From the NCBI GenBank assembly GCA_965205015.1, contig OZ242029.1, positions 3,840,001 through 3,904,000 on the forward strand: 64,000 bases of DNA, read 5' to 3'. This DNA comes from Candidatus Poribacteria bacterium (GTDB lineage: Bacteria; Poribacteria; WGA-4E; WGA-3G). Each line of letters opens with the position of its first letter. The first letter of the stretch is position 1. The notes under the pieces were generated by a model. It was given only the letters and a program-made list of their open reading frames with translations. It did no database searches and was not told where the DNA came from. The translations under genes were made by a program, and so were the position numbers. Shown piece after piece: positions 7,160-45,095 of the stretch.

Positions 7160-9148
7160 GTGGTAAATCAGGCAATGTGTCTAATAAGTAAAATTAAAAA
7201 ACTTCTCTCACACGTGCTGCTGATGTTTCTCCTCTGCGCGTTTGCTTATGCTCGCTTTGAAGAGGTACACGTCTTAATTGAGGCAGGACACTACACGGAA
7301 GCGAATGATAAACTCGAAGCACTTGCGGAATCTGCTAAAGATATTGCTGTGAAAAGTTGGTGTTATTATCAGATCGGTGAGATCCACTATAACTATACGC
7401 ACCAGTACAACAAAGCGATCGGGGCTTACGATAAAATTCTAAAACTTGAGGAAAACGGGCTTGCTGCTGAGGAGCTTTTCCTCGCCATTATCAAAAAAGG
7501 GGATGTCCATGCCCGCATGGGCAATTACCAGGACGCTATCCAAACTTACGATAGGTTGATTAAACTTGCCCCTGCTTCACATTTCGTGCATAAGACTGGC
7601 TTACAAAAGATACGGGATATTAACAACGCACTCGCTGACTTACGAGAACAGCAGCGTATTGCGATCCAGTATACAGGGACACCCCTTGCGGCTATCGCTC
7701 AATTTCAGATCGCTGAACTCTATCGGAATCATTCCCAACTCAATCAGCCTGAAAAGGCAATAGAAAAGTATGCGTCACTTCTCGAAGTGCACCCGAATGC
7801 GATTATGGCACCGGAAGCGAGATGGCGCATCGCGCATTTAAGGCATACCGTTCTGAACCAATCGGCTTTAGCAATGGCGACCTACAGAAAAGTCGTTGAG
7901 GATTACCCGACCAGCAATTTCGCTGCGGAGGCACTCTTTCAAATGGCAAGTATCCATCGCACAGCCGAGAAGTATTCATTGGCAATCCCCGTCTTTGAAA
8001 AATTGAAACAGAGGTACCCGAACTTCTGGAATATGCACGCTGTTCTCTATTGGACAGGTGTTTGTTATGAGAAAAGTTTAAACTATCCGAAAGCGATAGA
8101 GGCTTTTGAAACGTTCGTTCATGCCTATCTGCCCCAACTCGACCCAGGGTATTTAGGGCAGATCTCAATGCATGACAAAAGTGTGTCTGAGGTGAAGACA
8201 CAGATTGATCAGAAAATAGAGGCGCTCGCGGACCAGATGTCGGAAGTGGAATTAGAACGGTTGAACAAAGCGAGTGCAGATCGGAATTTTTCTGAAGCCT
8301 TAAGTATCGCTCGGCATCTCATCGCTACGGCACCGTATACCCCTCAAGCAGAGCGGGCAGCGGAACGACTTCCGACACTTCAGCAACTCACAGCCATCGA
8401 AAACCTGCGTGAGAAACTCCAAGACCAAAACTTGGTGCCGATAGAGGCAGCACGTGCGCGTTTGCAAATCGGGACCATCTATGAACGGAAACCTTTACAG
8501 GACTATCCGAAGGCAATTGCGGCGTATCAAGAGGTATTGAAATATCACGCCGAGTTGACGCATGCCGCCGAAGCACTCTACCGCAGTGGACGCATCTACG
8601 CTGAGCAACTCGCCACACCTAACGAAGCGATTCACGCTTACAAAAAGGTTATTGAAACGCATCCGAACACTTTACAAGCGATGATGGCAAATTTTCAGCT
8701 GGGTGAGCTTTACAGAGGACTTCATCGTTACAATGAGGCACTGCAAGCCTACGAAACGACGATCGGGTATCCAGAGCGGGATCGCTACATCGCAGGCGGC
8801 TATAAGGACAGTTTCGCCGATAGAGCGCAGTTTCGGATCGGACGTGTCCATTACGAGGACAGACGTTACAACGAGGCGCGTTTCGCTTTTGAGGAGTTCA
8901 TTCAAAACCGGACGCAGTCCCCCCGTCTCGCTGCTGCTTATATCTATCTGGCGGCTATCTGTGAAAATCGCAATGAAAACGCCCAAGCCGCTTACTATTA
9001 CAAAAGGGCGAAAAATCTACTCACAGACAACCCTGTGCAAATGACGACGCTCATAGAAGAAGCGAGGGGTCTCGGAAATCTACAAGTTGCCGCTGATTCA
9101 AATACAGTTATGCGGTTCCTTGAAGAAAAGCAGAAAAATCTTAAGTAA
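7160..9148 (+). CDS. Secreted multi-TPR protein (CpoB/BamD-like repeats)
   Basis: Signal peptide and many repeats of type A.F.IA..Y...KAI..Y..L...YP.S. Confidence 0.85.
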   Translation: MVNQAMCLISKIKKLLSHVLLMFLLCAFAYARFEEVHVLIEAGHYTEANDKLEALAESAKDIAVKSWCYYQIGEIHYNYTHQYNKAIGAYDKILKLEENGLAAEELFLAIIKKGDVHARMGNYQDAIQTYDRLIKLAPASHFVHKTGLQKIRDINNALADLREQQRIAIQYTGTPLAAIAQFQIAELYRNHSQLNQPEKAIEKYASLLEVHPNAIMAPEARWRIAHLRHTVLNQSALAMATYRKVVEDYPTSNFAAEALFQMASIHRTAEKYSLAIPVFEKLKQRYPNFWNMHAVLYWTGVCYEKSLNYPKAIEAFETFVHAYLPQLDPGYLGQISMHDKSVSEVKTQIDQKIEALADQMSEVELERLNKASADRNFSEALSIARHLIATAPYTPQAERAAERLPTLQQLTAIENLREKLQDQNLVPIEAARARLQIGTIYERKPLQDYPKAIAAYQEVLKYHAELTHAAEALYRSGRIYAEQLATPNEAIHAYKKVIETHPNTLQAMMANFQLGELYRGLHRYNEALQAYETTIGYPERDRYIAGGYKDSFADRAQFRIGRVHYEDRRYNEARFAFEEFIQNRTQSPRLAAAYIYLAAICENRNENAQAAYYYKRAKNLLTDNPVQMTTLIEEARGLGNLQVAADSNTVMRFLEEKQKNLK

Positions 9149-9234
9149 TCAAAATTATGGTAGCGTTGAACGCCTCTGAACTTTGCGATTCCATTTAACC
9201 AATCCTACCCAATTTCTGATACGTCCTCGTGCTA

Positions 9235-10563
9235 TCAGTTTTTTAAAGTTGAATGGAACTCCACAGGGTAAGGTGCTGCTGCTGTCAAACTTTTATGCGA
9301 ATCCGGCAATCTTTTCAGTTCTGCAGCTGCATGGGTCTGGATGTCATGCAGATTCGGAAAATCATATACCAACTCCCCATTTTGGATAATCGGAATTAGG
9401 AGTGGCTGTCCCTCGGGGGTCGGTTCATCCCAGGGTGTCACGCAATCTCTGACATAATTCCCATCAACATCGGCAACACGATACATCTGCTTTTTGCCCG
9501 GTATCGTGGCTTTAGAGGGCTCATCCAGCGACTGTTTCCCGACAGGTCGGCCATCGCTTTCGACCAACTTGTAAACACCACTGAGTGCAGAGGTTCCCCC
9601 TTCACCGGTCATCGAATCGAAGTTCGCACCCGTCGCGAGCCGTGTGCCGACGCCGAAGCTATCGATGGGCGCACCATTTTTGAGCAACGTGTCTATCTGA
9701 AATTCATCGAGTTCATGGCTGGCGATAATTTGGACATAATCGAGTCCTGCCGCATCAAGGATACGCCGGACCTTTTTACTGAGCGTTAAGAGGTTCCCAC
9801 TGTCCAATCGGACGGCACGCAATCGTACCCCGCGCGCCTCCATCTCCTTTGCGACAATGCAAGCATTACGCGCCCCCTGAAGTGTATTGTATGTATCAAT
9901 TAGGAGGGTTGTGTTGTTCGGAAAGGTAGTCGCGTAATCACGGAAGGCTTCTAACTCGGTAGGGCGTTCGGAGATGAACTTATGCGCCATCGTGCCAACG
10001 TAAGGTATATTGAAATAGTGGCCGGCAAGCACTAACGAGGTCCCGCTCGCGCCACCGATAAAAGAGGCACGAGCGGCGAGGATTCCGGCGTCCCTGCCGT
10101 GTGCTCGCCTTGCACCGAAGTCGAATACAGGTCTGCCTCGTGCGGCTTCTACTATCCGTGAGGTTTTCGTGGCAATCAGCGTCTGAAAGTTCATGACACA
10201 GAGCAGATAGGTCTCAAAAAGTTGGACATCTCTGGAGCGACCTGTGACATTGATAATCGGTTCATTGGGAAAAACGAGCGTGCCTTCAGGAACAGCGAAA
10301 ATGGAACCCTCAAAGCGGAAATCCTTAAGAACGGCAAGATAGTCAGAACTCAGATCGCCTCGGTGTGCCAACCAGTCGAGCGCAGCATCCGTGAAACGTA
10401 AATTTAAGACGTAATGGATAACCTGTTCCAATCCAGCGGCTATGAGATACTGTCCTTGTGGGACTTCTCGGACATAGTAGTTCGCTGTGACGATTGCCTT
10501 GTTCTGGGCATTGAAATCTGCCTGCCCCATCGTGAGTTGATAATAGTCAACGAAGAGTGCCAT
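9235..10563 (-). CDS. pncB: Nicotinate phosphoribosyltransferase
   Basis: DYYQLTM, DFGARRAHG, GTMAH, LLIDTY, VRLDSG, FGVGT, GVYKL; true start MALFVDYY at 10563. Confidence 0.95.
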   Translation of the reverse strand: MALFVDYYQLTMGQADFNAQNKAIVTANYYVREVPQGQYLIAAGLEQVIHYVLNLRFTDAALDWLAHRGDLSSDYLAVLKDFRFEGSIFAVPEGTLVFPNEPIINVTGRSRDVQLFETYLLCVMNFQTLIATKTSRIVEAARGRPVFDFGARRAHGRDAGILAARASFIGGASGTSLVLAGHYFNIPYVGTMAHKFISERPTELEAFRDYATTFPNNTTLLIDTYNTLQGARNACIVAKEMEARGVRLRAVRLDSGNLLTLSKKVRRILDAAGLDYVQIIASHELDEFQIDTLLKNGAPIDSFGVGTRLATGANFDSMTGEGGTSALSGVYKLVESDGRPVGKQSLDEPSKATIPGKKQMYRVADVDGNYVRDCVTPWDEPTPEGQPLLIPIIQNGELVYDFPNLHDIQTHAAAELKRLPDSHKSLTAAAPYPVEFHSTLKN

Positions 10564-10597
10564 ATTATCTTCTATGAGCAAAGCAGATCTCGGGGGA

Positions 10598-10688
10598 GAA
10601 GACTGGAAGACTGGAAGACTGGAAGACTGGGGGGCATCTATCCTTCCATCCTTCCCCCCTTCCAACTTCGCTCCTTCCTTCCTTCCAA
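10598..10688. repeat. Family B element: (GAAGACTG)x4 arm plus CCTTCC-rich arm
   Basis: Tandem octamers followed by partly complementary ATCCTTCC repeats; core shared with 12172-12238. Confidence 0.8.
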
Positions 10689-10694
10689 TGGATT

Positions 10695-13082
10695 TCATAG
10701 ATCCTCTCCCTCAGTGAGAATGAGTCTCTGATTGATAGACAAGTTTCGATGCGTATCCACTTGACCGGAGGGCCAGACAATTTCAAGGATATCCACCTTC
10801 GTATGTGTTCCAAGCCCGATTTCAAGGGACAAACTGTTGGTCGATCCGAATCCACATCCACCGCTGACTTCTCGGTAAATTACGTCATTACCGATATGCA
10901 GGGTAACTTTGGCACCGATACCATCCCGATTGCTTTTGACCCCGACGAGTTTTAGGGTGAGATGGTTGTTTCCAGTGCCATTGTTGCGATAGAAGAGATT
11001 GTGCCACTGGTCGCCGATAAATGCGCCGCCGACGGGGACATAGATATCAACATCGCCATCCGTATCGATATCACCAAAGGTTACGCCGTGTCCTTTTCCG
11101 ATGTTTCCTAAACCCAGCGCAGCCGTCGCGTCCGTAAAAGTGCCATCGCCGTTATTGCGGAAGAGCGCATCGCGTTCGAGTCGTCCCATCTGTGGCGCGC
11201 CGGTGGCAAGATAGATGTCGAGGTAGCCGTCGCTATTGATGTCCCCAAAATTCGCTCCCATCGCGCCATACGCGTGGTAGAGTCCCGATTCACGAGTGAC
11301 ATCTGTGAAGGTGCCATCGCCGTTGTTGCGATACAGCACTTGCCGGTCAGCATCGTGGGGGGCAGTGCCTGTGATTTGACCGGCGATGAAGGCTTGAAAA
11401 GAGCCTGAGTTTGAGATGAAGATGTCCAGATCCGCATCGTTGTCTACATCGAGAAAGAAGGTAACAAAGGCATCCGTAACAGGGAGACTCATACCTGTCG
11501 TCGGGGTAACATCGGTGAAGGTGCCATCGCCGTTATTGCGGTAAAGCACATTGGATTGCCCGAAGTTGACGACATGCAGGTCGATGTGTCCATCCTTATC
11601 GTAATCCCCCCAAGCGGTGCCGAGGGAATTCCCGGTATCTGCGACACCGGCAACATCTGCGGTATTCGTGAAAGTGCCGTCCCCATTGTTGCGATATAAG
11701 ACATTCGCAGCACCATCACCGATAACACCGTCAGCAATATAGAGATCAATGTAGCCATCATTGTCGTAATCCGCCCACGCGGCACAGAAACTACTCTGTG
11801 GGTCTGCGACACCTGCGGTGTGTGTGACATCGGTGAACGTGCCATCGCCGTTGTTATGATAGAGTGTGTTCTCTGCCGCACCCGACCAACCGCCACGGGT
11901 GATGTAGATATCCAAATAGCCATCGTTATCGTAATCGGCGAAGAGTGAACCCCAACCGCCTCTTGGATCGGCAATACCTGCTGCATCTGCTGTGTTTGTG
12001 AAAGTGCCATCGCCGTTATTGCGGAAGAGGGCGTGGGGTTGATACGTGCCCACCGCGACGATGTCTAAATCTCCGTCGTTATCATAATCTCCCCAGGCAC
12101 TGCCGCGTCCACCATCAACTTTGTCCATTTTTAACTCGGGGGCGATATCGGTAAAATAGTTGTCAGTTGTCGGGTGGAAGGGTGGAAGGGTGGAAGATTG
12201 GGGGACATCCATCCTTCCATCCTTCCTTTCTTCCATCCAAACGCCGCTGATGGCTATTTTAAACTCTGCTGGCAAGTCTTCTGGATAGCCACCGAGTTTG
12301 CTGTATGCTGTCCACAAGTTCCACAAGGTTTCGGGGTCGCGAGGTTTCAAACGGAGCGATTCTTTGAAATTCTCAACGGCTTTTTCAGGTGCGCCGTGTC
12401 GGAGATGATAGACTCCCAGATAGTAGTACGCCCCAGAATGACGACGGTAATTTTGGATGATATTTTCAAAACGTTCAGCGGCTTTGTCGGCTTCGCCGAG
12501 CCGGAATTCGGCTAAACCGAGTTGGAGCATCGCCTCCAGATTGTTCGGTTCGAGGTGCAGCACCTTTTCAAACTGGCGTTTGGAGGCGGAGAGATCCGGG
12601 ACGAGCATCTGTTGCGGCGCCCCCAAGAAATAGCCGAGCCTGATGCGTGCCTCGGTATCGTCAGGGTTTACCTCCAGAGCATTGGTGAGCGCAGCAGTAG
12701 AATCAGAAAAGCGTTGTTGATAACTGAAAACCTGTGCCAGCGTTAGGTATGCCTTTGAAAGTTGGTCCTTGTGGGAAGGGTTTTTAACCCCGATATCCTT
12801 AAGCAGCCCTATCAGCGTTTGCAACGTTTCTTCGGCAAGTCCCCATTTCTGTTGTCTAACATAGGTGCGGGCGAGCAACATGCGTACATCGTGAGCATTG
12901 GCATCGATCTGCAGGCACGCCTGAAACGCTTTTTCCGCTTCAGCGAAGTTGTTCCTATCTAATGCGTCCATGCCTTTCTGATAGTGCGCCGTGAGTTGCG
13001 GATTTACATCACGCTGCGGTGTATCTGTATTGCATCCGATACCGATGAAGAAAATAAGGAAAATAGAAAAAATCGCTCGCAT
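10695..13082 (-). CDS. Lipoprotein with TPRs, FG-GAP/VCBS propeller and ASPIC/UnbV domain (CRTAC1 family)
   Basis: IGIGC lipobox-like signal, TPRs, repeated DYDNDG..D and LYRNNGDGTFTD, SNRDGIGAKV and WPSG C-terminal domain. Confidence 0.92.
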   Translation of the reverse strand: MRAIFSIFLIFFIGIGCNTDTPQRDVNPQLTAHYQKGMDALDRNNFAEAEKAFQACLQIDANAHDVRMLLARTYVRQQKWGLAEETLQTLIGLLKDIGVKNPSHKDQLSKAYLTLAQVFSYQQRFSDSTAALTNALEVNPDDTEARIRLGYFLGAPQQMLVPDLSASKRQFEKVLHLEPNNLEAMLQLGLAEFRLGEADKAAERFENIIQNYRRHSGAYYYLGVYHLRHGAPEKAVENFKESLRLKPRDPETLWNLWTAYSKLGGYPEDLPAEFKIAISGVWMEERKDGRMDVPQSSTLPPFHPTTDNYFTDIAPELKMDKVDGGRGSAWGDYDNDGDLDIVAVGTYQPHALFRNNGDGTFTNTADAAGIADPRGGWGSLFADYDNDGYLDIYITRGGWSGAAENTLYHNNGDGTFTDVTHTAGVADPQSSFCAAWADYDNDGYIDLYIADGVIGDGAANVLYRNNGDGTFTNTADVAGVADTGNSLGTAWGDYDKDGHIDLHVVNFGQSNVLYRNNGDGTFTDVTPTTGMSLPVTDAFVTFFLDVDNDADLDIFISNSGSFQAFIAGQITGTAPHDADRQVLYRNNGDGTFTDVTRESGLYHAYGAMGANFGDINSDGYLDIYLATGAPQMGRLERDALFRNNGDGTFTDATAALGLGNIGKGHGVTFGDIDTDGDVDIYVPVGGAFIGDQWHNLFYRNNGTGNNHLTLKLVGVKSNRDGIGAKVTLHIGNDVIYREVSGGCGFGSTNSLSLEIGLGTHTKVDILEIVWPSGQVDTHRNLSINQRLILTEGEDL
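12159..12256. repeat. Composite repeat (heptamer arms around a family B core) inside the coding frame
   Basis: GTTGTCAGTTGTC-(GGGTGGAA)x3-GATTGGGGGACATCCATCCTTCCATCCTTCC...GCTGATGGCTA; resembles intergenic copies at 10598-10688 and 19095-19215. Confidence 0.75.
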
Positions 13083-38651: not shown

Positions 38652-39440
38652 ATGAAACCAAAGGCACTTATTTTACGGACTGCAGGCACGAACTGCGACG
38701 CGGAAACGGATATGGCGTTCCAGTTCGCGGGAGCAGAGACAGCGTTAGTCCATATTCAACACCTCATATCAGGCAGAGTTAATCTTGCCGACTATCAAAT
38801 TCTCGCGATCCCCGGTGGATTCTCCTACGGCGATGACATTGCGGCGGGTATCCTGTTAGCCGTCGAGATGAAACACAAACTGACAGACGCGTTGAATCGA
38901 TTTGTCGAAGATGGCAAGTTAATAATTGGCATCTGCAACGGGTTTCAAGTGCTTGTGCGAACAGGCTTACTGCCCGGCAATGGAGCATCAGAGATGCGGC
39001 AGCGCGCCACATTGGCGATGAATACCTCAGCGAAATTCGAGTGTCGGTGGGTGGATCTGGAAACACAGGAGAGTCCGTGTGTCTTTACAACCGGAGTCAA
39101 AGCACGTATGTATCTCCCCGTTGCGCACGCTGAAGGTAGATTTACTGCCCCCGCGAAGGTGCTCTCAGAATTGGAAGCGAACGATCAGGTCGTGTTTCGG
39201 TATGCCGAGAATAGATACCCTAACAATCCGAACGGTTCCGATAGCGATATTGCGGGTATCTGTGATGCAACGGGCAAAATTTTCGGATTAATGCCCCATC
39301 CAGAACGGTTCCTGACGAAATGGAATCATCCGCGTTGGACACGGAACCCCGCGAACACCCAAGAGATCGATTCTGAAGAAGGCGACGGATTGGTTATCTT
39401 CAAAAACGCGGTTAATTACGTCTTTTCTAATTTTCCTTAA
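38652..39440 (+). CDS. purQ: Phosphoribosylformylglycinamidine synthase subunit PurQ
   Basis: GTNCD, PGGFSYGD, GICNGFQ, AHAEG, NPNGS, MPHPER. Confidence 0.97.
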   Translation: MKPKALILRTAGTNCDAETDMAFQFAGAETALVHIQHLISGRVNLADYQILAIPGGFSYGDDIAAGILLAVEMKHKLTDALNRFVEDGKLIIGICNGFQVLVRTGLLPGNGASEMRQRATLAMNTSAKFECRWVDLETQESPCVFTTGVKARMYLPVAHAEGRFTAPAKVLSELEANDQVVFRYAENRYPNNPNGSDSDIAGICDATGKIFGLMPHPERFLTKWNHPRWTRNPANTQEIDSEEGDGLVIFKNAVNYVFSNFP

Positions 39441-39448
39441 ATTAAAAA

Positions 39449-39883
39449 ATGTCAAATAAGTTATATCGGCGTCTACTCCCATTTTATATGAAATTGCCTG
39501 TCTTTTGGGCATTCATAATTCTTTCGGTATTAGGACAACTGCTTTGGGTGGTTGTCGTTTCACAGGATGTCCGGATTGACCTCCGGTGGTCGAGTTTCGG
39601 CTACGGCTTAGGGATCGGTTTGGGTTTCATGCAGGGGAAGTGGACGTCTCGGCTGTGGGATCAATCGTATCTACAGGTTCTAAAGCGGCAGATAACTTTC
39701 TGGGAAGCAAAAGGTGCGAAACTTCTGACCTTTTATACCTGCGTTGCACTCGGTTTACCGATTCTTTGTCCCTTCCTTATTCGTTCACTCGATACGTTGG
39801 TGGGCATCCAATCCTATGTTTTCGGCTTTATCGGCGCGATGAATGTGGCGTTGCTGCTCTGGGTGCGGCGCATGCCAAAGTGA
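39449..39883 (+). CDS. Hypothetical membrane protein (about 4 TM)
   Basis: 144 aa hydrophobic ORF 8 bp after purQ. Confidence 0.7.
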   Translation: MSNKLYRRLLPFYMKLPVFWAFIILSVLGQLLWVVVVSQDVRIDLRWSSFGYGLGIGLGFMQGKWTSRLWDQSYLQVLKRQITFWEAKGAKLLTFYTCVALGLPILCPFLIRSLDTLVGIQSYVFGFIGAMNVALLLWVRRMPK

Positions 39884-39921
39884 ATTTACAGTAAATAGTC
39901 ATTTTAAACATTGACAAGTAA

Positions 39922-39950
39922 TTGAAAAGTCGTTCCAAATGTGGTAAACT
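39922..39950 (+). promoter_or_regulatory. Sigma70-type promoter
   Basis: TTGAAA-17 bp-TAAACT with extended TG. Confidence 0.55.
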
Positions 39951-39996
39951 CTATGTAAGGATGAACAGATTCAGAACGATTACTGGAGAATTCAAC

Positions 39997-40515
39997 ATGC
40001 GTCCGTTGACAATTTCCCTACCAGATTACCTCTATAAAAAACTGGCACAACAAGCTAAAGTGTCTGAAACCTCCCTTGAAGAACTTGTGTTGTTTCAACT
40101 CAAGCGCGACGAGGCAAAAGGTGCTGCCCTGACCTTCTTACAAAAGCGAGCGGGTAGATGTTTGACGGTAAGAGAACCTATTCTTAAACAATCAACACCC
40201 GCTACTTGGGTAGTTCCCATTTTCACCAACGTCGCGCCTCCTGTCGAAGTTGGGGAGATATTCGTTGATGCTAACACTGGCGAAATTTTAAGCGCAGAGA
40301 TGGACGTGACTGAAATGATTAAGAAGGGACACGTGAGTTTTGGGTTTAAGTCTCTCGCTGTTGAAAAGCAGAAACGTTTGGCAGAACTCCTTGCCTTGAA
40401 CAATGAAAAAGTGTTAGAATCGGAATCAAAAAAAGAAATGGAAGCACTCCTCGCTGAAGAGCAAGCTCTCCAAATTCAAAATCTCGAAACACTGGAGAGA
40501 CGGCTTTTATCATGA
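39997..40515 (+). CDS. Putative antitoxin: RHH-like N-terminus, PepSY-like middle, helical C-terminus
   Basis: MRPLTISLPDYLYKKL..A...SLEE, W.VP...GEIFVDANTGEI, QKRLAELL......L...E.EAL; GGAG RBS. Confidence 0.65.
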   Translation: MRPLTISLPDYLYKKLAQQAKVSETSLEELVLFQLKRDEAKGAALTFLQKRAGRCLTVREPILKQSTPATWVVPIFTNVAPPVEVGEIFVDANTGEILSAEMDVTEMIKKGHVSFGFKSLAVEKQKRLAELLALNNEKVLESESKKEMEALLAEEQALQIQNLETLERRLLS

Positions 40516-40529
40516 GCAAGGCGTGATAT

Positions 40530-40937
40530 ATGCGTATAGGTAATCCATTGCGCAGTCCTGTGGCAAGCCGCGCAAATGAACGGTGTGAGTATTGTCAATA
40601 TCCAGAACAATTTTCTCCCTCCTCCTTTCAAGTCGAGCATATTGTGCCAAGATCAAGAGGCGGTCTGACAGAACCTACCAATCTGGCACTTGCCTGTTCA
40701 CATTGTAACGCGCACAAGGCTACGCGCGAAAACGGGACTGATCCATTGACGGGAATAGATGTTAGACTTTTCAACCCCCGGATTGATGACTGGACAGTTC
40801 ATTTTCTTTTAAATCGAGAGACTGGAGAGATTGAGGGACAAACATCAATAGGTCGGACAACAGTCGAAATACTCCTAATGAATGCTGAACAACCGATTCG
40901 AGCACGCAGGAACTTGATAAAACTTGAGGTTTTGTAA
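40530..40937 (+). CDS. HNH endonuclease (putative toxin)
   Basis: RCEYC, EHIVPRSRGG, NLALACSHCN..K, LFNPR..W..HF, GRTT..L.MN. Confidence 0.92.
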   Translation: MRIGNPLRSPVASRANERCEYCQYPEQFSPSSFQVEHIVPRSRGGLTEPTNLALACSHCNAHKATRENGTDPLTGIDVRLFNPRIDDWTVHFLLNRETGEIEGQTSIGRTTVEILLMNAEQPIRARRNLIKLEVL

Positions 40938-41027
40938 AAACACAAGAAGTCCTGTCAATCGATGAGTGCTGATTCTTGAAATACTTCCGACCCCTACGGA
41001 GATTTCTCACTTAAACCTCCCGAAAAT

Positions 41028-42767
41028 ATGAAACTTGATAGAAACCAAGAAAAAGCCGTGAATCACGGCGCGGGTCCTGCTATCGTCATCGCGGGACCCG
41101 GTAGCGGCAAAACGACAGTCGTAACGGCACGAATTCTGAACCTTATCCAGACGCATAACATCCCACCTTTACAAATTCTTGCTATTGCCTTTAATAGAAA
41201 AGCAGTTGAAGAGATGGAGACGCGCATTTTGAGAGAACTGATGCCGTCACAGTCCTCTGATAAGACTGAAACAGATAAAAAACCCGAAATTCGGACGCTT
41301 CATGCATTCGGTAAAGATATTATCACTGAAAACTATAAACGTGCGGGATTCAACGAATATCCTGAGATCTGGGCGGGGCAGATAGACGAAATCATCGCAC
41401 AAGAACGGATGCAGATTGAACGGGAAGCCTCCAATGTTTCGGTTGCCATCTATAAAATAGAGAGTAAAAGTACCGGCAAATGTTATATTGGACAAACGAC
41501 ACAGCCAGAACGGCGGTGGAAGGAACACTTTGAAGACTCATCAAATGACAGACTTCGACAAGCGATCCGATCTGAAGGCGCGTCAGAATTCAGTTTTGAG
41601 GTGCTTGAACGGGTGCCAGGGCGAGAGGCGAACCCTCGCGAGGCACACTGGATTGATTTCTACAAAAACCAGACAAGTGTGTTTAATCGTGCAGATCCGT
41701 TGCGAGTGCAGTATAGCAACCAACTAATTCTCGAAATGTTCTGTCAGCATTTTGATATCCCATATAAAGAACACCTCGACAGAAACCCTGATTTTGAGAA
41801 TCTCCGCGATCGCTTCAACGAGATAAAAGAGACCGTTATGCGAGCGAAACGCAAGGTCACCACCGGATTGTTCGACCCAACAACCCTTGACGACCCCGTA
41901 GCACAGGCATTTGCCGTAAAATATGAGACGCTCAAAACCGAGGCAAACGCCGTCGATTTCGAGGATATGATTATCCACGCCGCGAACCTGCTTGAAACGT
42001 GCCCGGATCTTCGGCAAACCTATCGCGACAGATACCCGTATCTGCTTGTTGACGAATTCCAAGATATTTCACCCACCGACTTCCGATTGGTTTCGCTTTT
42101 ATCGGCGAACCTCTTTGCTGTCGGCGACGACGACCAAGCGATTTACGGGTTTCGTGGCGGCGATTCCGAAATTATGCAGGAATTCACGGATCGACGCGAT
42201 GTCGCGAAATACGAAATCACGCGAAACTATCGCTCCACATCAACGATTGTTGAGCACGCAAGAGCCTTGATTGAACGCAATGCGCCGCGCATTCGTAAGA
42301 ATCTCCGCGCCCACAATCCATGCCAGCAGGACATAAAGATTGTCGGAACGACCCCTGAGACTATAGAAACCCTCTTACGCCGTGAATTGAGATCCTCTCA
42401 GGAGACCGCTGTGTTGGCGCGCACGAACTACGAAACCGACTGTATTCAAGAGATGCTCGCTGGACACGCGCATCCTGTCGAGGTGACGACGATCCACAGA
42501 GCCAAAGGTAGGGAATGGGAAAAGGTTATCCTTGTCCATAACACATTGGCGCGGCGTTTCCCGCGGCGTGATAGTAAACTCGCAGAGGAGCGTCGTGTCT
42601 TCTACGTCGCGATGACGCGTGCTAAAGCGGAATTAGTGGTGCTTGGTGGACAGTGTCCGTTTGTGCCGGAGTTTGAGAAAATCCGCAAAAATATCGGTTA
42701 CTATCTCCGACAGTTTGCGTATTGGCGGGCGAGAAGGAAATTGAAAAAGAAAAGTGACTCAAAATAG
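41028..42767 (+). CDS. UvrD/PcrA-like SF1A helicase with internal GIY-YIG nuclease domain
   Basis: AGPGSGKT, AFNRKA, TLHAFG, VDEFQD, VGDDDQAIYGFRG, NYRS, TIHRAKGRE, EERRVFYVAMTRAK; inserted AIYKI...CYIGQT...RWKEH...E..WI. Confidence 0.9.
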   Translation: MKLDRNQEKAVNHGAGPAIVIAGPGSGKTTVVTARILNLIQTHNIPPLQILAIAFNRKAVEEMETRILRELMPSQSSDKTETDKKPEIRTLHAFGKDIITENYKRAGFNEYPEIWAGQIDEIIAQERMQIEREASNVSVAIYKIESKSTGKCYIGQTTQPERRWKEHFEDSSNDRLRQAIRSEGASEFSFEVLERVPGREANPREAHWIDFYKNQTSVFNRADPLRVQYSNQLILEMFCQHFDIPYKEHLDRNPDFENLRDRFNEIKETVMRAKRKVTTGLFDPTTLDDPVAQAFAVKYETLKTEANAVDFEDMIIHAANLLETCPDLRQTYRDRYPYLLVDEFQDISPTDFRLVSLLSANLFAVGDDDQAIYGFRGGDSEIMQEFTDRRDVAKYEITRNYRSTSTIVEHARALIERNAPRIRKNLRAHNPCQQDIKIVGTTPETIETLLRRELRSSQETAVLARTNYETDCIQEMLAGHAHPVEVTTIHRAKGREWEKVILVHNTLARRFPRRDSKLAEERRVFYVAMTRAKAELVVLGGQCPFVPEFEKIRKNIGYYLRQFAYWRARRKLKKKSDSK

Positions 42768-42782
42768 GAATTGTGGTATAAT
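42754..42782 (+). promoter_or_regulatory. Sigma70-type promoter
   Basis: GTGACT-17 bp-TATAAT with extended TG. Confidence 0.55.
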
Positions 42783-42840
42783 TCTACTAAAAGCGGGTTT
42801 GAATTGGCACAATCGCTAAAAAAACAGAAGGAGCACACAA

Positions 42841-43110
42841 ATGACAAACGAAGAACTTTATCAACTGATGAAAGATGGTTTCGATCAGATGAAAACAGAA
42901 ATCAACCAACGTTTTGCAGAGGTCAATCAGCGTCTGGATAGGGTAGAGACCCGGTTAGATGGGATGGATGCCCGGCTCCGCACGGTTGAAAACGGTATAT
43001 CCGAACTCAAGGGCAAGCAAAATGCAATTGCGGGAGTGCGGAGTTGGATAACGGTTGCATGTGCCATCGGTGCCATAATTATCTCCATTGCCGTCGCTAT
43101 TTTCAAATAA
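42841..43110 (+). CDS. Small coiled-coil protein with C-terminal TM anchor (XhlA/Bdr-like architecture)
   Basis: Heptads INQRFAE-VNQRLDR-VETRLDG-MDARLRT, hydrophobic tail, AAGGAG RBS. Confidence 0.8.
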   Translation: MTNEELYQLMKDGFDQMKTEINQRFAEVNQRLDRVETRLDGMDARLRTVENGISELKGKQNAIAGVRSWITVACAIGAIIISIAVAIFK

Positions 43111-43169
43111 CCCTCAAACGCCTGCCATAAAAAATTGCTCCATTACAAATACCAAGTTCCAGTCTCTGT

Positions 43170-45095
43170 ATGGCAAACGCAACCTTGAAAAACCAAAATT
43201 CCCACCCCGGCGTAACGTTCCGTGCCATTGTCCTCGGTTTGCTACTGATCCCAGTAAATACCTACTTCATCATGGCAAACCACCTCAAATTCTGGAGCAC
43301 TCTCCCGACGACGATGTCCCTCATCTATAACGTGATTATCACGTTGATGGTGCTCATTCCGTTTAACCTGCTGCTGAATCGGTTTCTGCCGCGGTTTGCG
43401 CTGAGACAGGGTGAACTTCTGACGGTCTTCGTGATGCTGTCGCTGTCTTCGGCGATCGCGGGGCACGATATGATGCAAACGGTTATCCCGACGATATCGG
43501 ATGCGTTTTGGTTCGCGACCCCTGAGAACGAATGGAAACAACTGTTTTGGCGGTATCTCCCGCCGTGGCTGACCTCTAACGATATGGCAAGCCTGCAGGC
43601 GTTCTACGACGGAGAGAGTACTATCTATAGGATGGTCCATCTGCGCGGATGGTTACGCCCGATTCTCTGGTGGACGCTCTTTCTGACGGTTCTCATCTGG
43701 GTGATGATCTGCTTGGACGTTTTTCTCCGAAAACAGTGGATCGAGCATGAACGATTGACATACCCTATCGTGCAATTGCCGTTGGAAATGACAAGGCTCG
43801 ACGGACGACTTTTCCGATCGCCGATGATGTGGCTTGGGTTCTTGATTGCAGGCGGTATCAATCTCATCAATGGTCTCCATGTGCTTTTCCCCGAGATCCC
43901 TGAAGTCCCGGTACGGCACGCTGAACTGGGTCAATACTTCACACAGAAGCCGTGGAATTCAATGGGATGGACACCGGTGTATGTGCGTTCGTTCGCCGTT
44001 GGACTCGCTTATCTGATGCCACTGGAAATGTCGTTTTCAATTTGGTTTTTTTACTGGTTTTGGAAAGCACAACGGATCCTGGGCAGCGCACTCGGTCTTG
44101 ACGTTATGCCGGGGTTTCCTTATGACTGGCAACAGGTGATGGGGGGGTATCTTGTGCTTGCGTGTCTCGCACTGTGGGGGGGACGCCGCTACTTTCTTAG
44201 GATGCTCAAGTATATCTTTCGATGGCGTAAGGCTCCCGGCGACATTGACGACAGTAGAGAACCGATGCGTTATCGCTGGGCGGCAATTGGGTTAGTGTGC
44301 GGTTTGTTTTTCCTATGCGCTTTTTCACGACAAGGTGGAATGGAATTCTGGACAATCGGACTCTACTTTTTAATCTATTATCTGTTAGCAATGAGTCTGA
44401 CGCGTATCCGTGCTGAAGTCGGACCGCCGACGATACGGACGTATGCAACGCCTCACGATATCCTTACAGATATTTTCGGCACGCGATTGATTTCGCACGG
44501 TAGTCTAACGATGATGCGTCTCTATCTCACCTTCAATCGTGGGTCGCGCGCCCATCCGATGCCGCATACACTCGAAGGCTTCAAACTCGCAGAGGAAACA
44601 GGCATGCACTCCGGCAGACTCATCGTGGCGATGATGTTCGCCGCGGTGATCGGGATTCTGGCATCGTTTTGGGCGTATCTCGTCGTCGGATACAATATCG
44701 GTGTTGTGAGTGACCTGGGCACGGGGGGGTATAACCTTTTGCAGAGTTGGATCTATCACCCGGTTGACACCGATGTTCCTGCCGTGATTTTTATAGGCAT
44801 CGGTGCCCTTTTTACCGGCTTCTTCTGGTGGCTACGCACAATATTTCCGTTCTGGCCCTTTCATCCTGCGGGGTATATGGTCGCCGGTGAAAGATCAACG
44901 ATCGGTCGGTTGTGGTTTTCGATACTTATCAGTTGGGGTGTCAAAACAATCTTGCTGAAAGTGGGTGGGATCCGCCTCTATCGTAAAGCGTATCCGCTCT
45001 TTTTAGGACTGATTCTCGGGGAATTCATGGTAGGTGGTGTATGGGTGCTGATTCGACTCATCACAGGGATGCCGATGTATTCTTTTTATAGATGA
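43170..45095 (+). CDS. OPT-like polytopic membrane transporter (DUF6785 + DUF6784)
   Basis: Many TMs, LRKQWIEHERLTYPIVQLP, R.RAEVG, WPFHPAGY, PLFLGLILGE. Confidence 0.8.
   Translation: MANATLKNQNSHPGVTFRAIVLGLLLIPVNTYFIMANHLKFWSTLPTTMSLIYNVIITLMVLIPFNLLLNRFLPRFALRQGELLTVFVMLSLSSAIAGHDMMQTVIPTISDAFWFATPENEWKQLFWRYLPPWLTSNDMASLQAFYDGESTIYRMVHLRGWLRPILWWTLFLTVLIWVMICLDVFLRKQWIEHERLTYPIVQLPLEMTRLDGRLFRSPMMWLGFLIAGGINLINGLHVLFPEIPEVPVRHAELGQYFTQKPWNSMGWTPVYVRSFAVGLAYLMPLEMSFSIWFFYWFWKAQRILGSALGLDVMPGFPYDWQQVMGGYLVLACLALWGGRRYFLRMLKYIFRWRKAPGDIDDSREPMRYRWAAIGLVCGLFFLCAFSRQGGMEFWTIGLYFLIYYLLAMSLTRIRAEVGPPTIRTYATPHDILTDIFGTRLISHGSLTMMRLYLTFNRGSRAHPMPHTLEGFKLAEETGMHSGRLIVAMMFAAVIGILASFWAYLVVGYNIGVVSDLGTGGYNLLQSWIYHPVDTDVPAVIFIGIGALFTGFFWWLRTIFPFWPFHPAGYMVAGERSTIGRLWFSILISWGVKTILLKVGGIRLYRKAYPLFLGLILGEFMVGGVWVLIRLITGMPMYSFYR

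Follow-up and report, generated by a model that had tools for sequence, protein, structure and literature searches.

What is an intron-endonuclease type of nuclease doing inside a DNA repair-type helicase? Enzymes that unite a helicase with a nuclease, such as RecBCD, AddAB, AdnAB, Dna2, Cas3 and Nhi, are central to DNA repair and immunity, and as far as known to us they all carry their nuclease as a terminal PD-(D/E)XK or HD domain. We report here a different arrangement from a stretch of 64,000 nucleotides (hereafter the window; all positions without a prefix refer to it) of the genome of a Candidatus Poribacteria bacterium (contig OZ242029.1, positions 3,840,001 to 3,904,000), where one gene encodes a UvrD-family helicase with a GIY-YIG nuclease domain nested in its subdomain 1B. 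A preliminary description of the window had proposed a compact, possibly constitutively active helicase-nuclease of unusual architecture that acts in repair or anti-phage defence. We find it to be a conserved chromosomal gene of sponge-symbiont Poribacteria that is undescribed in print, and we discuss what the encoded enzyme may do. The positions of its parts are collected in Table 1.

The helicase motor

The gene product is a UvrD/PcrA-type helicase of superfamily 1A (SF1A) with the complete set of motor motifs. The Pfam family UvrD-helicase (PF00580) matches residues 4-388 (E 3.6e-61), and because only 267 profile positions are spread over this span, an insert of more than 100 residues must lie in the N-terminal helicase domain; UvrD_C (PF13361, E 2.9e-22) matches in two stretches, the last of which covers residues 483-538. 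The protein has the full set of motifs that mark an SF1A helicase (Walker A, DExQD as motif II, and III to VI), and each of 71 sequences, the window protein and the 70 orthologs defined below, has the motor residues K28, T29, D342, E343, Q345, Q370, R376, R402, K493, G494, R522 and R531. The Pfam matches and these invariant residues bear out the earlier observation that all UvrD/PcrA motifs are accommodated in a protein of 579 aa.

The fold agrees with the motifs. An AlphaFold2 model of the whole protein (predicted local distance difference test, pLDDT, 85.8; predicted template modelling score, pTM, 0.80) was ranked by Foldseek closest to UvrD of Deinococcus radiodurans (E 7.7e-25), followed by Escherichia coli UvrD, PcrA and Rep. 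With VIA-align, the 1A/1B/2A fold superposed on PcrA, UvrD and Rep at Z 25-27 (349-416 residues aligned, root-mean-square deviation (rmsd) 2.5-3.2 Å, 28-32% identity). The superposition on PcrA that had been suggested in the preliminary description gave Z 27.2 (2pjr), the same value as for D. radiodurans UvrD (4c30), with 406 residues aligned and an rmsd of 2.9. The helicase missed the NCBIfam equivalog cut-offs for pcrA (212.6 vs 911.2 bits), rep (187.4 vs 951.45 bits) and uvrD (179.6 vs 1144.45 bits), and scans with PADLOC, NCBIfam and PHROGs assigned it to no specific named system, returning only generic UvrD/GajB and homing-endonuclease matches.

The nested GIY-YIG domain

Subdomain 1B contains, nested within it, a GIY-YIG domain of the I-TevI type whose catalytic residues are all present. 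The preliminary description had placed it at about 41445-41690, in agreement with the limits given in Table 1, and had considered that the insert might fail to match GIY-YIG profiles; Pfam, PHROGs and a comparison with I-TevI by profile all match it. PF01541 (GIY-YIG) covers residues 140-214 (E 1.7e-10; 41.4 bits, with the cut-off at 22.6), and in PHROGs residues 139-220 match phage homing-endonuclease families (E 1.4e-14 to 4.3e-12). The NCBIfam model of group I intron endonucleases (TIGR01453) matches residues 140-220 over positions 3-86 of its 215, at 52.3 bits and thus just below its cut-off of 56.05. A GIY-YIG profile built from a domain alignment of 39 family members was compared with solved structures, among which the catalytic domain of I-TevI was the only clear match (E 1.8e-4). 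In this alignment AIYKI, CYIG, RRWKEHF and REAHWI pair with GIYQI, VYVG, KRWKRHF and RENFWI of I-TevI, and Y142, Y153, R163, H167 and E205 correspond to its motif residues; N220, which lies outside the alignment, probably corresponds to the conserved Asn of I-TevI, to judge from its spacing after E205.

A separate AlphaFold2 model of residues 125-233 (pLDDT 83.5) superposed on the I-TevI structures 1mk0 and 1ln0 with TM scores of 0.70 (query) and 0.78-0.81 (target), an rmsd of 2.1-2.3 Å, an E value of 2.4e-5 and 28% identity, and the second-best match in the PDB was the N-terminal domain of UvrC (E 0.02). The secondary structure follows the order of the GIY-YIG fold (in the numbering of the domain model, strands 14-22 and 28-33, helices 36-46 and 50-59, strand 64-73 and helix 74-91). 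Aligned with phmmer, the extra material falls between positions 107 and 175 of D. radiodurans UvrD, a region that is presumably inside 1B according to the limits of this subdomain in UvrD. In the whole-protein model the long helix 118-136 continues directly into the first GIY-YIG strand, and the exit linker (residues 221-230) is of low confidence (block pLDDT 56). The Pfam and NCBIfam matches of the helicase include no DNA-binding module (NUMOD, zinc finger or helix-turn-helix) behind the GIY-YIG domain, and neither an intein Hint domain nor a C-terminal PD-(D/E)XK nuclease (PF12705) is among its Pfam matches. Judged from its sequence, the insert is of the homing-endonuclease type and has no DNA-binding module of its own.

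Conservation and distribution

A homologue search yielded 120 clusters at 80-100% identity, all with PF01541. The 78 related loci comprise, by their titles, 72 from Poribacteria, four labelled 'uncultured bacterium', one contig of 1,048 bases labelled Enterobacteriaceae, and a PcrA-like gene from Patescibacteria that has 33% identity and no insert. Full-length orthologs were those whose match extended from residue 1 to at least residue 565 with more than 60% identity; 70 genes qualified, while cut genes fell out and two tandem-repeat orthologs with a split match (L050, L052) were left outside the set. All 70 have the nested GIY-YIG architecture and none is without the insert. They come from independent assemblies, several of them complete chromosomes, so the chimeric read assembly that the preliminary description had allowed for does not account for the architecture. 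Within the nuclease, none of the 71 sequences deviates at Y142, Y153, G155, R163, E166, H167, N173, R177, E205 or N220; position 162 is occupied by R in 66, Q in four and H in one.

Ratios of nonsynonymous to synonymous substitution (dN/dS) were estimated after Nei and Gojobori from 400 sampled pairs, of which 160-337 were usable per segment (63-240 were skipped as saturated). The rough value for the GIY-YIG segment (0.098) resembles those of the motor segments (1A-N 0.095, 1B-C 0.084, 1A-C 0.057, 2A 0.088); the 1B-N helix and the C-terminal tail gave higher values (0.176 and 0.143, respectively). These estimates indicate that the nuclease is under the same purifying constraint as the motor.

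A profile search (E <= 1e-15) found the GIY-YIG domain of this family in 108 of 175 genomes of the phylum to which the relative genome G001 belongs, a count that does not consider kinship among the genomes. The gene in its short form, as in the window, was single-copy in five of five complete genomes. Its divergence follows that of the nearby gene purQ, with identities to the window of 93% for purQ and 90% for the helicase in locus L003, and of 69% for both in locus L046. Among the best 150 matches from 1.84 billion representatives, 34 carry the family GIY-YIG domain and the others are ordinary UvrD-like proteins. In the Poribacteria genome G006, small stand-alone open reading frames (ORFs; frames of 164-220 aa) on other contigs match the GIY-YIG profile at about E 1e-11 (C3:188-400, C3:67077-67289, C2:156341-156568); the captured nuclease may have free-standing relatives in them.

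Absence of subdomain 2B

At the site where UvrD, Rep and PcrA carry the large subdomain 2B, a regulatory part that binds duplex DNA, the preliminary description had counted only about 20 aa, and both alignment and model support this. In the phmmer alignment residue 483 is paired twice with D. radiodurans UvrD, at its residues 380 and 564, and residues 483-542 continue against UvrD 564-628; some 183 residues of the latter (381-563), which are its 2B, have no counterpart in the helicase. The whole-protein model has a single helix (467-476) between strands 460-464 and 485-488 at this site.

The same description had regarded the lack of 2B as part of an unusual architecture, a view that we do not share. 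The nearest language-model clusters in the Atlas are UvrD-like helicases of 420-520 aa from Bacillota, Actinomycetota, Saccharimonadota and phages. None of these nearest clusters has a GIY-YIG domain, which is no evidence of absence since the Atlas covers large clusters only. The best helicase matches without insert (P0149, P0154-P0158; 40-46% identity) align in one stretch of 284-301 residues; because this stretch crosses the 2B site without a large gap, they also lack 2B. DarH of the DarHTG system is another natural UvrD-family helicase without 2B (PMC13069673). The 2B-less state is therefore not unusual in itself. In four of the insert-free matches (P0149, P0155, P0156 and P0157; 2273-6513 aa) the helicase core, matched over residues 263-550, is a module within a giant protein, and one of these giant proteins has a trypsin-like peptidase domain.

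Comparison with known enzymes

UvrD, PcrA and Rep (PDB 4c2t, 4c30, 3pjr, 2pjr, 2is1, 1uaa) are like the window helicase in motor motifs and in the 1A/1B/2A fold, whereas the latter has neither 2B nor a C-terminal extension of the PcrA/UvrD type and carries a GIY-YIG domain in 1B. The catalytic domain of I-TevI (1mk0, 1ln0) shares the fold and the Tyr, Tyr, Arg, His and Glu motifs, but the window domain has neither linker nor DNA-binding domain and is embedded in a helicase; being fixed in every ortholog, it is not mobile. In AddAB, AdnAB and RecBCD, too, one chain unites a nuclease with a UvrD-like motor (VIA-align Z 22-24 for AddA and 20-21 for AdnB); they are heteromers with a C-terminal PD-(D/E)XK nuclease, in contrast to the GIY-YIG domain nested in 1B. 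The Rep variant with 2B deleted, which Cheng and colleagues reportedly described in 2002, has no nuclease in 1B. The same holds for DarH, which has a UvrD-like core without 2B and no nuclease in 1B (PMC13069673).

GIY-YIG domains have been found joined to NTP-driven DNA motors before. A 2006 survey of the GIY-YIG superfamily lists Tetrahymena Tlr8p, an SF1 helicase with a C-terminal GIY-YIG domain, and a single in-frame GIY-YIG insertion in an HsdR subunit, which was judged possibly irrelevant to function (PMC1564403). These cases involve other motor families and other positions of the nuclease, and in neither case does a UvrD-type helicase carry the domain as an insertion in 1B; such an insertion does not appear in the excerpted text of the survey (PMC1564403). 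Searches of the full-text literature likewise yielded no description of a UvrD-type helicase with a nested GIY-YIG domain.

The window protein thus has a homing-endonuclease catalytic domain captured in the 1B arm of a UvrD-type motor and kept intact across a whole clade of uncultivated sponge symbionts, and clearly exemplifies how a selfish nuclease module is domesticated. A further merit is that it provides a natural scaffold of 579 aa in which DNA tracking and predicted nicking are physically coupled, and on which the influence of 1B geometry and of the missing 2B on helicase activity can be tested directly.

Long paralogs with GrpE and S1 domains

About a dozen loci have, directly downstream of the short form, a second and longer member of the family, which the preliminary description does not mention (L002, L003, L022, L026, L029, L031, L037, L042, L051, L070, L041 in three ORF pieces, and L020, where it is cut off; e.g. 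L003:7742-11480, L022 from 8247, L042 from 7802 and L070 from 7795; proteins P0123-P0140). The long paralogs consist of a UvrD core, a GIY-YIG domain predicted to be active, a degenerate GIY-YIG repeat, a full GrpE domain and one to four S1 domains. When 20 of 150 representatives were scanned with Pfam, 16 had GIY-YIG, 11 had GrpE (PF01025, 70-95 bits) and six had S1 (PF00575; up to four stretches, 197 bits), and all carriers of GrpE and S1 were among the 16 with GIY-YIG. The paralogs unexpectedly connect a DNA motor with RNA binding and with a co-chaperone module of Hsp70, and we know of no described helicase-GrpE fusion. The fused GrpE is additional to the housekeeping grpE in two of three genomes searched. 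The long form occurs in one of five complete genomes searched, and none is present within the 64-kb window. It is possible that the long paralogs widen the range of substrates to RNA or RNA-DNA hybrids.

The second GIY-YIG-like repeat directly follows the first in most long forms, and also in the short-form orthologs L050 and L052. It has kept IYKI and YIG, and because the Arg-His segment and the Glu are lost or replaced, it is very probably catalytically dead. In L050 and L052, whose proteins have 673 and 670 aa, the second repeats lie at L050:6664-6951 and L052:6670-6942; cluster P0036, which is of this tandem-repeat type, has 35 member sequences. In L041, a complete chromosome, the long paralog (L041:7812-12227) is divided into three ORFs (7812-8126, 8497-8808 and 8955-12227) and is either a pseudogene or affected by frame errors of the assembly.

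Gene neighbourhood

The recurring gene order is purL, purQ, a gene for a membrane protein of 144 aa, and the helicase gene, with the three upstream genes present in 47, 50 and 51 of the 78 loci, respectively; downstream follow genes for a membrane protein of 641 aa (35 loci), an oxidoreductase (25 loci) and an SGL-like protein (23 loci). Many of the 78 loci are too short to show both flanks, and a distant group with about 70% identity (e.g. L038, L041, L042, L064-L075) has other neighbours. In the window a variable two-gene cassette precedes the helicase gene (Table 1). Its gene for a 197-aa protein is present in 25 and its HNH endonuclease gene in 19 of the 78 loci, always between the gene for the 144-aa membrane protein and the helicase gene, and the cassette is missing, for example, from L050. 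The HNH protein has PtuB-like (E 3.6e-12) and IscB-like matches. The HNH gene is missing from 59 of the 78 loci, so the cassette is not an obligate partner, and it is probably not part of the helicase function; its fixed spot in part of the loci suggests that it may be a mobile or defence-type insertion. Just downstream of the helicase gene, at 42841-43110, lies an ORF of 89 aa with a coiled coil and a C-terminal hydrophobic helix, which has weak XhlA-like and phage-family matches and is found in 30 of the 78 loci.

Helicases and repair genes of relatives

The repair-gene inventory was taken from complete genomes of relatives (81-88% identity), from which that of the window genome is inferred. 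Each of three complete relative genomes has several PF00580 genes. The canonical pcrA whose presence the preliminary description had left to be checked was found in relative genome G001 (923.6 bits against the cut-off of 911.2), and G001, G002 and G007 each contain uvrC (574-596 bits), a Cho-like ORF and mutL. An AddA-like protein with UvrD and PD-(D/E)XK (PDDEXK_1) domains exists in the relatives separately from the GIY-YIG helicase. Because the relatives keep pcrA, uvrC, the Cho-like gene, mutL and the AddA-like protein, the GIY-YIG helicase is an extra enzyme and no substitute for a lost one. The Cho-like ORFs (G001:C1:2240881-2241588, G002:C1:2528056-2528763, G007:C1:4551722-4552438) have 247-248 aa and match only the first 231-233 positions of the UvrC model at about 206 bits. 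The PF00580 proteins of 1146-1189 aa in G001-G003 were considered as long GIY-YIG forms and ruled out, since in Pfam they are AddA-like proteins with UvrD and PD-(D/E)XK domains.

Possible function

With modest confidence we favour the view that a large Poribacteria clade has inherited the protein vertically as an accessory helicase-nuclease, and that its most likely role is genome maintenance. The purL-purQ synteny, the presence of the domain in 108 of 175 genomes and the retention of canonical repair genes make vertical inheritance and maintenance likelier than mobile defence. By analogy with UvrD and PcrA, the core would bind single-stranded DNA and move on it in the 3'-to-5' direction. The catalytic domain of I-TevI needs a tethered DNA-binding domain to find its target, and the helicase core would take the place of that domain here. 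Since targeting would fall to the core, the nuclease may be aimed by DNA structure and not by sequence; junctions of single- and double-stranded DNA, flaps, forks, and D- or R-loops are the structures that come into consideration. As 1B lies over the DNA path, the strand would be nicked at or near the junction that the motor has reached, and autoinhibition of the Rep/UvrD type is probably missing in a protein without 2B. The enzyme could in this way process stalled forks, recombination intermediates or transcription-replication conflicts. That the nuclease is fed by the helicase is plausible because a GIY-YIG family that cuts only single-stranded DNA is reported (PMC11893778).

Several observations weigh against a vertically inherited maintenance enzyme. 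The best PADLOC matches of the helicase are GajB models (E 1.1e-64 to 1e-23), though they are generic UvrD matches, and the flanks vary as they do at hot spots of defence genes or mobile elements (HNH cassette in 19-25 of 78 loci, coiled-coil ORF in 30 of 78, long paralogs in about a dozen). The presence of S1 domains in the long paralogs speaks for RNA more than for DNA, and the median dS of 1.2-1.5 is near saturation, which makes the dN/dS values rough. Finally, 67 of 175 genomes of the phylum are without the family GIY-YIG domain, and the helicase-nuclease is for this reason clade-specific and not universal; the non-carriers suggest a clade limit, and incomplete genomes may contribute to their number.

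Of the two roles offered in the preliminary description, defence is the less likely one. A defence enzyme against phages or plasmids would be a single-protein helicase-nuclease that degrades foreign DNA from its ends or at replication intermediates, like the Nhi type or the helicase component of Gabija, and the GajB matches, the PtuB-like matches of the HNH gene that directly precedes the helicase gene in the window, flanks that differ between genomes, extra paralogs that come and go, and a GIY-YIG part nearest to phage homing endonucleases are all in line with it. However, the GajB matches are generic for UvrD, and Pfam and PADLOC show no GajA-like OLD/TOPRIM partner beside the helicase, where the neighbours are the HNH gene, the 197-aa protein, the coiled-coil ORF and the membrane proteins. 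A single-copy gene that has kept its purL-purQ synteny in about 50 of 78 loci, is present in 108 of 175 genomes, has a dN/dS of about 0.1 and diverges like purQ also fits poorly with this role, which we consider unlikely. An explanation of the insert as selfish or decaying, that is, as an in-frame remnant of a homing endonuclease that still spreads itself or has no role for the host, seems very improbable to us. The domain is of the I-TevI type, and the second repeat in the long forms, L050 and L052 is without Arg, His and Glu; the HsdR insertion provides a precedent (PMC1564403). Against this stand the presence of the insert in 70 of 70 orthologs, catalytic residues invariant in 71 of 71 sequences, a dN/dS equal to that of the motor, and the lack of both a Hint domain and a DNA-binding module that could recognize a homing target.

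A further possibility is that the family acts on RNA or on RNA-DNA hybrids (R-loops) where RNA occurs, as in conflicts between transcription and replication. On this view the short form would supply the core of motor and nuclease, and the long paralogs would add RNA-binding S1 domains and GrpE. GrpE in 11 and S1 in six of the 20 proteins scanned, all with GIY-YIG, the position of the long forms directly downstream of the short form wherever they are present, and a fused GrpE that is extra to the housekeeping grpE in two of three genomes argue for such a role. UvrD-family motors and the characterised GIY-YIG nucleases are known to act on DNA, however, and the window helicase has neither S1 nor GrpE in Pfam, with no long paralog in the 64 kb around it and the long form in only one of five complete genomes; we consider this role quite doubtful. 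A broader proposal, which we put forward only tentatively and do not expect to hold, is that the short form and the long paralogs together constitute an undescribed, lineage-specific machine for nucleic-acid surveillance. A 2B-less UvrD motor would nick the strand that it tracks during unwinding, the accessory modules would tie this unwinding and cutting to RNA (R-loops, nascent transcripts) and to the DnaK cycle, and the short form alone would be a minimal structure-guided helicase-nickase. Genome maintenance by an accessory helicase-nuclease remains the role that we prefer.

Feature positions and expression

Table 1. Positions in the window of the helicase gene, its parts and the upstream cassette.
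Feature	Position	Strand	Remarks and evidence
Variable two-gene cassette: 197-aa protein without known family and 135-aa HNH endonuclease	39922..40937	+	HNH E 9.2e-14 (Pfam)
Whole helicase gene	41028..42767	+	579 aa, ATG start, stop codon 42765-42767; UvrD-family helicase with nested GIY-YIG nuclease (ORF list, Pfam)
Subdomain 1A, N-terminal part, residues 1-100	41028..41327	+	Residues 3-98 vs D. radiodurans UvrD 13-107 (phmmer)
Walker A GPGSGKT, residues 23-29	41094-41114	+	Within the N-terminal part of 1A
1B, N-terminal part, residues 101-136	41328..41435	+	Model secondary structure
GIY-YIG nuclease domain, residues 137-222	41436..41693	+	Y142, Y153, R163, H167, E205, N220; Pfam PF01541, I-TevI alignment, fold match
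1B, C-terminal helical part, residues 223-330	41694..42017	+	Model; residues 289-483 pair with D. radiodurans UvrD 175-380
1A, C-terminal part, residues 331-390	42018..42197	+	Motif II DEFQD (342-346), motif III GDDDQAIYGFRG (366-377); invariant alignment columns
Subdomain 2A, residues 391-550	42198..42677	+	phmmer and model
Usual 2B site of UvrD, Rep and PcrA, residues 465-484	42420-42479	+	Single short helix
C-terminal basic and aromatic helix, residues 551-579	42678..42764	+	Helix 556-578 in the model; GrpE/S1 extensions occupy the same place in long paralogs

No Shine-Dalgarno-like motif is evident upstream of the helicase ATG, and a scan of 39300-43300 predicted 8 promoters and 6 terminators; with 5.2 and 4.4 expected, these numbers are not above chance. 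In metatranscriptomic contigs from four of four runs of two studies, parts of the helicase gene are covered at 88-99% likeness (e.g. 41733-42726 by record 14 of run X4 and 41912-42460 by record 11 of run X3), and contigs of 2.4-2.7 kb stretch from the membrane-protein gene across the cassette and include the opening 140-240 bases of the helicase gene. RNA libraries may contain DNA, and the contigs are strandless and lose regions of low depth, so that uncovered parts of the gene are uninformative; the contigs are consistent with transcription but are no proof of it. One contig from the RNA library of run X3 links position 39887 straight to 41027, which corresponds to the arrangement without the cassette.

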